64,000 nt of DNA, taken from contig OZ024745.1 in the NCBI GenBank assembly GCA_964016885.1, positions 113,522,001 through 113,586,000 on the forward strand. Direction: 5' to 3'. The DNA is from Eledone cirrhosa (taxonomy: Eukaryota). A model generated the notes under the pieces. The model made no database searches. It had not been told where the DNA came from and saw only the letters and a list, made by a program, of their open reading frames with translations. Below, piece by piece: positions 24,286-27,775 of this stretch. Both the position numbers and the translations under genes were made by a program. Every line of letters starts with the position of its first letter. Positions within the stretch are counted from its first letter, which is position 1.

Positions 24286-27234
24286 ATTGTATATCTATAT
24301 ATATACATATATATATACGTATATAATATATATACTTGCGTTAAATATGCTGACTGAACGGGGTCGCGTATGCAAAGCATCAATCTGTAATTGCTATTCG
24401 TTTCAAGCACTCAACGTCATGTTTGTTTCTTCCAAATATGATTTGTCAGTCAGTGACTGAGAATATGTAGGATAGGGAAAATGAGAAGTCCGGTGTAGAT
24501 ATTAAAGAGTCCTTTATTAACAAAGCTATGATGTATATGTCAATGACGATCGTGACCACGTGATTGTTCAGTCAGCTAACTCGTCACGCGATATCATCAG
24601 ACAGCACCTTTATGTAATAAGGTTACGTTTCCGAGGCATTCTAAAGACAAGGGAACGGACAAATATGATGTTTTCATAGCCGAAGTCCAATATAGGATAG
24701 CACGCCTTGCCACATAGATTTATAGCCCTTTACGTTTGAGCTTAAATCCTGCCGATGTTATCTTTGCCTTTCATCCCTACGAGGTCGATATGATAAAGTA
24801 CTAGTAACCCTCTGGGGTTGTTTTAATCGCCTTTCTCCTTCCCCTCCAAATTGCTGACCTTGTGTCAAAAGTAGTAATAATTATTATACACTCCAAACTG
24901 TTCATATTGCATGCTATTCTTAAAGGTTTTCAACTAGACTTAAAGAATATCTATTGCAAACTATTTCGTCGGTTTTCATCGTCTGGGTAGTATTGAACTG
25001 TACAAATTATTCATTTGATTTATCAGGTTTAAATGTATATGATTCATCGTCAACAGAAGGGTGGTAAGCCATTTTAATGACAGGCAGTTATTTGTCAAAA
25101 AACGTGCTAAAAGAAGTTTTTCTTGTATTATTGATAAACACATTCTTTTGATAAAATAGTGCAGAAAAGAAAAAAAATTGAAACCCTTTTAAAATAATTA
25201 ATTTTGATGCTAGAAGTTCCTTTACATTTTTATGAACATTTTGGTCTTTCGAGAAATTGTAGGAAAATAAAATGAAATGTCACAAAATATTTTAGGGTAG
25301 TAGAATTATCTTTAAGCATGAAATATTCTCATCTATTGAAAATATTTTCATAAACTTCAACAAGTTGCTACTATAAATCTTGAACTAAAAATATACATAA
25401 TAAAATGTATCAAACAAATTGATCGATCAGCGTAAAGAAAAAGTTGTCACATAAGAGTAAGGCAATTTTTAATGTGTTGCGTCTATGGCTTGATCTTTGA
25501 ATTTACAACGTTTTATGAACGCGAAGATAGTTTGCAAGAACACTTTTGATTAGCTCAATAATTTTCTCTTTTATTTTAATCTCCCTAAAGATTTTTTTAT
25601 CCGACTAAATATACATTCTATACGTCTGTTAAAATTTAGCTATTGAATAATATAAGGTGTGATTAATATAAAAAATACTATTTATGTCTTCAACGCTAAT
25701 ATTATCGAAAAATAGATTCAACATATGTATTTTTTTTTTCTTTTTAGTAAATGTGAGGAACATAAAACATTTTTTTTTTCTTTTATTTGTCTGTTTGAAG
25801 GAATCGATTAATTTTGCGAAAGTAAAAGAGAAGTACACTACCCTGTCGGAAGAATTAATTGAAAGTATTAGTATGCTTAAGGTGGGGAGGAACCAAAGAG
25901 AAATGATGTATGACAAAAGATCTACATTTCTTCTTCTTCTTCTTCTTCTTCTTCTTCTTCTTCTTCTAGTTAGACAAAGCTAGAACGCTGAGACAAGTGG
26001 GGCAAGACCAAGCGAAGCCAAAGGACGTTCTAGTTAGACAAAACTAGAACGGCGAGGGGTACGGGGCAAGGCTCAGCGAACCCTTCTACATTCTTCTTCT
26101 TCTTCTTCTTCTCATCGGGTTTTGAATTTTTTTTTTGTAGGGTAATTTTGTGTTTTCTATTGTATTGGATGCACTGTATGTATTATGTGCAGTACTATTG
26201 CCTGTATCCTTATTTCTTTATTTGTCTTAGAAATGTATTTTCACTTGTATTATCGATCTTGAAACATATTCCTTCCTGGTGAACTTGACAGTAGTATCAG
26301 GTGGGCTAATCTTGATAATTCTGTCTGTTTGGATTCGTAAGTATCAGAATTCTGTCGCTTTGTGATTCTCAGTGGCCGTTTCTATAATAGTGAAGTTCCT
26401 CTGCATAATATATGTGCAATGCCTAACTGAACTGTGTTCAACCCAATGATTTCCCTTTCTTTGTATCCTCAATATTCCTACTTTTGGAGAGATTTTTCTT
26501 TAGCATGATATTCTATAGACTCTAATTCTAGTTATAAGTAGATTATTTTTTTCACAATTACGCTCGTTGCACATCCTTTCACCTTACAGCTGTCAGTTAA
26601 TTCAGTCTCTCTATTATATATGATGGCAGTCACAGAATTTTACTTGTTCGTTTTTAGCGTATTTTCTAGCTATTATACAATAATTTGTTTTGCTCTTTCT
26701 TTGCTAGGTATATTTATAGTCCTTCAGTGAATATTTTATAATAGTTTCTTCTTGTGGTTGTTGACGATAATTCTCTCCTGGTTATGTTGTTTTTAGTTTG
26801 TTGTTTTTTTTTCGACAATTTTAGGTTTCAGGTTCATCTTTATGTTCTTGAGAAGTAAGTAGCGCTGTTTTATGGAGAATTAAAATGTATTTGTATACGA
26901 TAGAAGCTTTACTTTCTTGTAGAAATGTGTAATTGTCTCTGGTTTTGTTTTAGGGTCTCGTCCTTTTAGTACAGTGTGTGTAAAATCGGATACGCTATAT
27001 CGTTGCAGGGTGATTCCTTTTGTTATGTGTCTGCTTTATGCTAAATGGGTTAGTGTTCAGTTATATTTTATCAAATACGTGATATGTGGGTTGTAATAAT
27101 TTATTAATAGTGAATATAGACATAGAATATTCGAAAATATTCTGTATGTTTATAATAAACATTTTGAAGACCTAATCGCTATAGAATAGAATACGTCACG
27201 TATTACAATTAGATTCTCGATAAAAGCAAGGGAA

Positions 27235-27277
27235 GTAATCTACGCGTTTCATTCTTGTTAGAATTCATCAGGACTAC
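27235..27277 (-). ncRNA. Type I hammerhead ribozyme core, inverted copy A
   Basis: The + strand reads gtaatctacgcgtttcattcttgttagaattcatcaggactac, the reverse complement of the core. One substitution in the distal stem (27288 G versus C at 27598). Confidence 0.88.
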
Positions 27278-27544
27278 ATATCCAGTGGTTTTATCGAGAA
27301 TGACACAGCTAGAGACTTATAGAATACTTAGCTGTGTACAGGAACTGGTTTGAAAGAGCGGTTGCCGGTCCGGCAGAAATTAGAAATTGGAATAAATGCT
27401 CTGAAATAGCGATATATATGTGAATATAGACATAGAATATTCGAAAATATTCTGTATGTTTATAATAAACATTTTGAAGACCTAATCGCTATAGAATAGA
27501 ATACGTCACGTATTACAATTAGATTCTCGATAAAAGCAAGGGAA

Positions 27545-27587
27545 GTAATCTACGCGTTTCATTCTTGTTAGAATTCATCAGGACTAC
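27545..27587 (-). ncRNA. Type I hammerhead ribozyme core, inverted copy B
   Basis: Reverse complement of the core, 310 bp from copy A. Confidence 0.88.
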
Positions 27588-27775
27588 ATATCCAGTGCTT
27601 TTATCGAGAATGACACAGCTAGAGACTTATAGAATACTTAGCTGTGTACAGGAACTGGTTTGAAAGAGCGGTTGCCGGTCCGGCAGACAATTTCTAATTT
27701 CTGCCGGACCGGCAACCGCTCTTTCAAACCAGTTCCTGTACACAGCTAAGTATTCTATAAGTCTCTAGCTGTGTC

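Follow-up and report, generated by a model that had tools for sequence, protein, structure and literature searches.

How does a non-coding tandem repeat come to lie in the genome of Eledone cirrhosa as two head-to-head arms enclosed by one short duplication? The question is raised by an array in the window, the stretch of 64,000 nucleotides of DNA that we analysed. The array is one recent insertion. We consider it probable that the inserted element was a non-LTR retrozyme and that it entered by two-ended Penelope priming, likely on one circular RNA monomer.

The insertion and its empty allele

The array lies between two copies of TTATTAATAGT (27101-27111 and 29245-29255), and no third copy is present on either strand of the window. 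Its parts are as follows, in window coordinates.

27101..27111, forward strand: left 11-bp target-site duplication, single copy in the empty allele
27110..27687, reverse strand: 'Q' arm in inverted orientation, 1.9 units long, with its RNA-sense 3' end at unit 280
27687..27699, unstranded: head-to-head joint between 27687 and 27688 with 12-nt spacer, from the arm alignment
27688..29245, forward strand: 'P' arm of 5.0 units of 310 nt, all identical, with its RNA-sense 3' end at unit 8
29208..29245, forward strand: Penelope-type 'tail' between the two priming sites; the inverted match stops at 29207
29245..29255, forward strand: right 11-bp target-site duplication, single copy in the empty allele

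Unit positions 1 to 310 are numbered from window position 27688. The P arm runs from unit 1 to 8 in mutually identical copies and is 1558 nt long including the 1 nt that it has in common with the duplication (1557 nt without it). The Q arm is the reverse complement of unit 13 to 280 with a lone substitution at 27288, and measures 578 nt including 2 nt in common with the duplication (576 nt without them). Positions 27110-27687 are complementary to 27700-28277, and the 12 nt that separate them can form an AATT/AATT mini-stem of 4 bp with a bulge of one base. The tail occurs at the right end of the insertion only. The initial annotation had described an 11-bp duplication around the whole array, an inverted left arm joined to a longer right arm, and a palindrome with a 12-nt spacer. 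Both copies of the duplication were located and are unique in the window, and the coordinates of the arms and the spacer hold. The outward-facing RNA-sense 3' ends, with 1-2 nt in common with the duplication, were recovered on recomputation, and the ends (280 and 8) and the junction (13/1) do miss the predicted ribozyme cut after unit position 149.

The same annotation had proposed a search for the empty site, where a single 11-mer was expected. Such a site was found in another sample: in runs X1 and X2, which come from one sample, a contig fuses 27100 to 29245 and omits 2144 bases, with 11 letters that fit either side and flanks that are otherwise letter-identical. Because the empty allele has a single 11-mer, the repeated 11 bp must have arisen by target-site duplication, and the locus is polymorphic for the insertion.

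Several other features of the window were recorded. The right flank (29221-29855) is repeated sequence, with a read depth well above that of the single-copy left flank, and it contains an imperfect inverted pair (29343-29384 and 29656-29697). The interval 59396-60061 weakly matches Penelope proteins in their C-terminal part by tblastn (27% identity, E about 1e-10), and we read it as a decayed element. A tRNA-like 195-nt repeat stands in two tandem copies at 5278-5665, and we take it to resemble an octopod SINE.

The hammerhead unit and the two-end rule of its family

The unit is 310 nt long, non-coding and tandemly repeated, and every unit contains a type I hammerhead motif. The hammerhead core occupies unit positions 113-155, and the predicted cut falls after position 149 (window 27836). 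Helix I pairs 113-118 with 150-155, the core starts from 119, and helix III is minimal with a palindromic loop.

27776..27864, forward strand: type I hammerhead domain with long closing stem, from motif scan and fold; activity predicted only
27523..27611, reverse strand: inverted-arm copy of the hammerhead domain, predicted to be cut at 27551
27213..27301, reverse strand: second inverted-arm copy of this domain, predicted to be cut at 27241

The CTGATGA core of the first domain lies at 27806-27812, and the domain recurs at +310, +620, +930 and +1240. Its long closing stem has a fold z of -6.3. An Rfam scan of the window gave no match at gathering scores. Over the array, no open reading frame of at least 90 aa was found, and tblastn with five Penelope proteins gave no match. 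By sequence criteria the array unit is a non-LTR retrozyme, for which self-cleavage and circular RNA are predicted. The array appears to move in the manner of Penelope insertions; having no frame for reverse transcriptase (RT) and GIY-YIG endonuclease, it is not itself an autonomous Penelope-like element. The main texts on metazoan non-LTR retrozymes describe a similar low-GC non-coding tandem unit of 170-400 nt with a type I hammerhead, dispersed multimers, duplications of more than 4 bp, and the co-occurrence of Penelope elements.

The host genome is 3.0 Gb in size and rich in (TA)n. Families were counted by sequence patterns. The core pattern has 18,224 matches genome-wide, and we estimate the family at about 18,000 units in over 1,000 loci. 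The P-end pattern (end after unit position 4) has 1,112 matches and the Q-end pattern (end after 279) has 1,310, some of which are internal variants. Arrays were sampled from 92 stretches of contig C1 together with the window. The picks on this contig were 12 by the ribozyme core, 60 of 76 regions by the P end, and 20 of 31 by the Q end; sets chosen by an end pattern may be biased toward TA flanks. Five rows (three duplicates and two 65-nt fragments) were excluded from the counts. Locus L105 was scored as two single arms though it resembles one interrupted pair, and two single-arm rows stop at assembly gaps.

The survey of other loci for inversions, which the initial annotation had proposed, showed that the inverted two-arm layout is the rule of the family. 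Eighty of 92 complete arrays are head-to-head, and so are 10 of the 12 picked by the core alone. In each of the 80, one end falls at unit 265-290 and the other at 300-13, and pairs of the same kind were not found (0 of 80). This one-P-one-Q pattern was seen however the arrays were picked (54/54 by the P end, 15/15 by the Q end and 10/10 by the core, plus the window), and likewise in three arrays truncated by the edge of the locus. The Q site is at about unit 279 and the P site at about 314, that is, at 4-11 of the next unit, about 35 nt away. The window ends fit these sites (Q 280 vs. about 279; P 8 within the zone 4-11). A duplication beyond plain TA is present in 12 of 81 complete two-armed rows, one of them a duplicate row, and is 11-57 nt long. 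The targets are AT-rich or (TA)n, with 11 of the 12 core-picked loci in (TA)n. The window target is not (TA)n, and it has only 1-2 nt in common with the array ends.

The idea of circularly permuted outer ends is contradicted by these two fixed sites, and we also rejected outer ends at the ribozyme cut site, as the ends are fixed near 279 and 314. If the outer ends are fixed start sites, their failure to coincide with the cut site is no evidence for a circle. That part of the earlier argument does not stand, because two fixed priming sites 35 nt apart explain the observation.

The inner ends behave differently from the outer ones. They are spread flat over the unit by a chi-square test (p = 0.44) and weakly non-uniform by a KS test (p = 0.03), without an excess at the cut site (4 of 162 at unit 145-155 vs. 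5.7 expected). The overlap at the joints has a mean of 2.3 nt vs. 0.76 nt in simulation; 34 of 57 joints have at least 2 nt, and 22 of 79 contain inserts. Two joints and locus L031 were left out of the joint scoring. The P arm is the longer one in 42 of 79 arrays, the lengths are roughly exponential, and 64 of 79 arrays have more than one unit in both arms.

A single primer would give inverted arms too, if the cDNA folded back and primed itself or if fold-back reads were joined as a chimera in the assembly. The window joint is indeed a near-perfect hairpin with the 4-bp mini-stem, and the arm lengths of the window array permit self-copying. Among the pieces listed for runs X1 and X3 (same sample), none showed the filled left junction, and the RAD runs X22 and X23 miss the flank, so the filled allele is known from the assembly alone, which would suit a chimera. 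A chimera would not, however, yield the 11-bp duplication, the fixed Q end or the substitution between the arms. In the family, 13 of 79 arrays have arm lengths that are incompatible with self-copying in either order, and fold-back is excluded for those. Junctions 20 nt or less from symmetry are at chance level (12 of 81 vs. 10.7 expected), so the 12-nt spacer was rejected as a special sign of fold-back. We regard an origin from one primer, in either form, as very improbable.

The template read from variants

If both arms were copied from one RNA, they should carry the same variants. The same haplotype was found in both arms of 63 of 65 arrays, compared with a frequency of 0.127 for random pairs. 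A private variant, seen at no other sampled locus, fills every copy of 18 of 81 arrays; in 14 of these 18 it is present in both arms and in at least four copies, with a maximum of 24 copies. The window array has no private variant. The simplest reading is that one RNA monomer was copied many times.

The kinds of variant differ between those that fill an array and those in a single copy. Among array-wide differences, sense-strand A>G accounts for 11 of 31 sites and T>C for 3 (p = 0.012), whereas single-copy variants include 6 A>G and 19 T>C among 93 (Fisher p = 0.0002 against the array-wide set). The T>C excess in single copies (L031-L122) would be expected if many of these are errors of the reverse transcriptase. 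The A>G sites 98, 115 and 169 recur on 2, 4 and 3 backgrounds, respectively, and lie in a predicted stem. They are all-or-none in each array; for site 115, there are 2 mixed arrays vs. 42 in shuffles. Coleoids are known for heavy RNA editing. We suggest that A-to-I editing is the source of the array-wide A>G variants, and recombination of haplotypes could mimic the recurrence of these sites. The array-wide variants may also stem from a homogeneous source locus. Since inheritance from such a source is possible, what the variants prove is a bottleneck of one unit at some point in the lineage and not at each insertion.

A cut linear monomer, from whose end the enzyme jumps to its start at the cut site in each round, would fit the monomer bottleneck equally well. 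Eight arrays have insertion variants at 151/152, adjoining the cut site, and 3 of 782 copies have G150>T, as such jumps might leave. Template jumps usually leave added bases, as in R2. The seam at the cut site is nearly always clean, with 18,224 intact and 14 changed copies at position 150, all 14 of them within continuing arms, and stops at the cut site are not enriched (the 4 of 162 given above). The clean seam favours a sealed circle over repeated end jumps, and we hold copying of a cut monomer to be most unlikely.

A clean seam is equally expected if an existing array is transcribed into an uncleaved multimer, either linear or a large circle, and this multimer is copied with the same two-ended Penelope priming. 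Some templates were multimeric, because the same minority variant stands at mirror positions of both arms in L069, L116 and L088, which is impossible from a monomer circle. In L088 the haplotype switches after the outer two units of both arms, a sign of a chimeric multimeric template. The weak helix III of the hammerhead also agrees with an uncleaved template, as does the purified Penelope protein from anole, whose reported main substrate is uncleaved RNA, ribozyme cleavage not being needed (PMC11167929). However, the mirrored events number only 3, against 71 one-arm positions (about 60 events) in the 70.8 kb that both arms cover, a count that omits L060 and L062; about 30 mirrored events are estimated if the sources were as mixed as present arrays. 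Moreover, the A>G sites are all-or-none, while the units of a multimer should be edited independently. As the template of the window array a multimer seems unlikely to us, and such templates probably hold for a minority of insertions.

Dual priming on separate identical circles of one source locus, with one circle for each arm, deserves similar attention; like the multimer, it would keep two-ended Penelope priming and alter the template alone. The lengths of the two arms are weakly correlated (Spearman 0.24), two enzymes on one 310-nt circle would displace each other's cDNA, and the arms of L062 differ at site 115, where the four outer P-arm units read A, and the two inner ones and the entire Q arm read G. 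The difference in L062 would be explained by a template change or by an edit made during copying, and either would order the arms in time. Against two circles, the strict one-P-one-Q pairing (80/80) points to one asymmetric complex, and the arms share their A>G variants, which would not be expected of separate molecules if the edits were made afresh. We judge this explanation improbable.

The length of the arrays could also have come later, from a short two-armed insertion that grew as a satellite by unequal crossing-over. Scattered repeated variants are found in the longest arrays (L072/L221, L219, L053, L052 and L105) and point to later unequal exchange and satellite-like growth there, and the arms of an older sister family, in the stretches seen, are mostly only one to two units long. 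In L072/L221 one arm is about 15 kb long and its variants are irregularly repeated. Overall, 202 minority variants were called in 242,296 bp, of which 60 come from one misaligned arm. Satellite growth is hard to reconcile with private variants that fill both inverted arms, with the youth and homogeneity of most arrays, and with the continuing polymorphism of the window allele, whose empty counterpart has the same flanking sequence. We therefore think that it has very little chance of being the origin of the window array. The initial annotation had concluded that the multimer arrived in one event from a circular or multimeric template and not by later expansion. The haplotype sharing, the array-filling private and A>G variants and the clean seam support a circular template, with a multimeric one in the three mirrored arrays; its denial of later growth stands for most arrays and fails for some of the longest.

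For the favoured insertion of a retrozyme from a circular monomer, we propose the following order of events. The unit transcript would self-cleave and ligate into a monomer circle, and a Penelope-type reverse transcriptase/endonuclease, probably a dimer, would bind this circle. A staggered cut would open the two DNA strands 11 bases apart. One target strand would be primed at P and the opposite strand at Q, each at its fixed site, and each enzyme would circle for a random number of rounds (here about 5 and 1.9) while displacing the strand ahead of it. Joining of the two cDNA ends via short homology, with fill-in, would complete the insertion. The parts of this scheme that we infer are transcription, self-cleavage, circularisation, the enzyme, the single template and A-to-I editing. 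A more specific version, in which one Penelope dimer clamps a single circle, both subunits roll, and host inosines become fixed in every copy, is put forward tentatively as a possibility that we find about as easy to doubt as to accept.

Penelope priming and the search for a driver

Penelope insertions have an inverted 5' piece and a tail of 30-40 nt at one end (PMC3846280, PMC8557442). The purified anole Penelope protein, a predicted dimer, makes nicks in both strands of AT-rich DNA and extends each of them, and it has two internal start sites on the RNA that bound the tail and need no homology to the target (PMC11167929). The P and Q sites fit this pattern closely, in the window array as well, with a gap of 35 nt compared to a tail of 30-40 nt. 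The Penelope link made by the initial annotation is strengthened by the fixed end pair, the one-ended tail of the 30-40-nt type, and the AT-rich or (TA)n targets. As far as the main texts describe them, endonuclease-bearing Penelope-like elements resemble our arrays in the head-to-head inverted piece, the one-ended tail, the AT-rich targets and the two start sites. Unlike them, the array has no coding frame and both of its arms are multimers of one unit. Arkhipova et al. (2013) ascribed the head-to-head form to self-priming on an antisense template (PMC3846280), whereas the retrozyme arrays point to sense-RNA priming from both target ends.

Twin priming by L1 offers another comparison. In the published account, inverted cDNAs start from two target nicks, are bounded by a duplication and are joined inside; the second primer sits at an internal position on the RNA, and each piece copies a different part of it (PMC2837659). 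The retrozyme array shares the first three features. It differs in having no poly(A), two fixed start sites, the layout as a rule and arms that repeat the same sequence. L1-type twin priming was rejected, because the second site is fixed, the 5' end of the P arm is not tied to it, and the arms overlap. The earlier reading as twin-primed reverse transcription is thus retained as one target-primed event with both strands primed, and given up in its L1 form.

We searched the genome for an element that could drive these insertions. Long RT + GIY-YIG frames were found in two families.

L153:3909-6722, reverse strand: L153 Penelope-like element with long RT + GIY-YIG frame; also in L154 and L158
L155:2275-5562, forward strand: L155 Penelope-like element with RT + GIY-YIG frame of 1096 aa

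The L153 family is autonomous by its RT and GIY-YIG domains, with an open frame of 938 aa, and is judged young from the 97% amino-acid identity among its copies. Its 3' ends fall at two TA-flanked sites about 65 nt apart, and its copies frequently form head-to-head pairs, a layout like that of the retrozyme arrays. A canonical hammerhead was looked for in the L153-family pLTR and was not found. The P end of the unit shows a likeness of only 7-8 nt to the L155 and L153 families, and none of the long-frame Penelope loci examined matched the unit significantly. No pLTR match to the unit was found in 50 GIY-YIG stretches, from 150 scored matches.

Sequences homologous to the unit did turn up in this search and proved to belong to the older sister retrozyme (L124:2442-2870, L173-L204). 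It is 68-78% alike to the unit, and one variant of its core has 98 exact matches. It retains both end sites and the head-to-head layout, with arms that are mostly short in the stretches seen, and no attached RT frame was found at 30 + 2 of its loci. Another hammerhead repeat with a similar core forms a short inverted insertion beside (TA)n (L162:8720-8905, and L158). Run X4 contains a near-identical unit.

For retrozymes, Cervera and de la Pena (2020) proposed tandem cDNA from circles, with Penelope as the candidate driver (PMC7229834). Li, Clavereau and Pollet (2026) tied retrozymes to pLTRs and discussed local satellite growth, and 8 of 9 frog retrozyme dimers were uncleaved in vitro while 1 of 9 was cleaved (10.64898/2026.07.22.740005), a result that weighs, with the minimal helix III, against the favoured scheme. 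Compared with the published non-LTR retrozymes, as their main texts present them, the two-arm layout, the fixed end pair and the variant test for a circle are additions. No description of two-armed retrozyme arrays was found in the literature compared (mostly open-access main texts). The insertion is of a known class, and its architecture and variant record are absent from that literature.

The arrays provide genomic evidence for a step that had been proposed, the reverse transcription of circles as the entry route of retrozymes, for which satellite growth is the alternative. They also bear on the origin of the inverted ends and the tail of Penelope elements. The family is very young, with over 1,000 near-identical insertions, fixed starts, a 310-nt substrate and variant markers, and therefore in vitro and pedigree tests are feasible. 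As a biochemical activity, rolling-circle copying of RNA into both ends of a DNA break would also be of interest. If the reading of a dimer on a single circle is true, the head-to-head form and tail of Penelope elements would generally reflect two-ended priming on sense RNA, and the arrays would preserve, in genomic DNA, individual RNA molecules along with the edits made to them.
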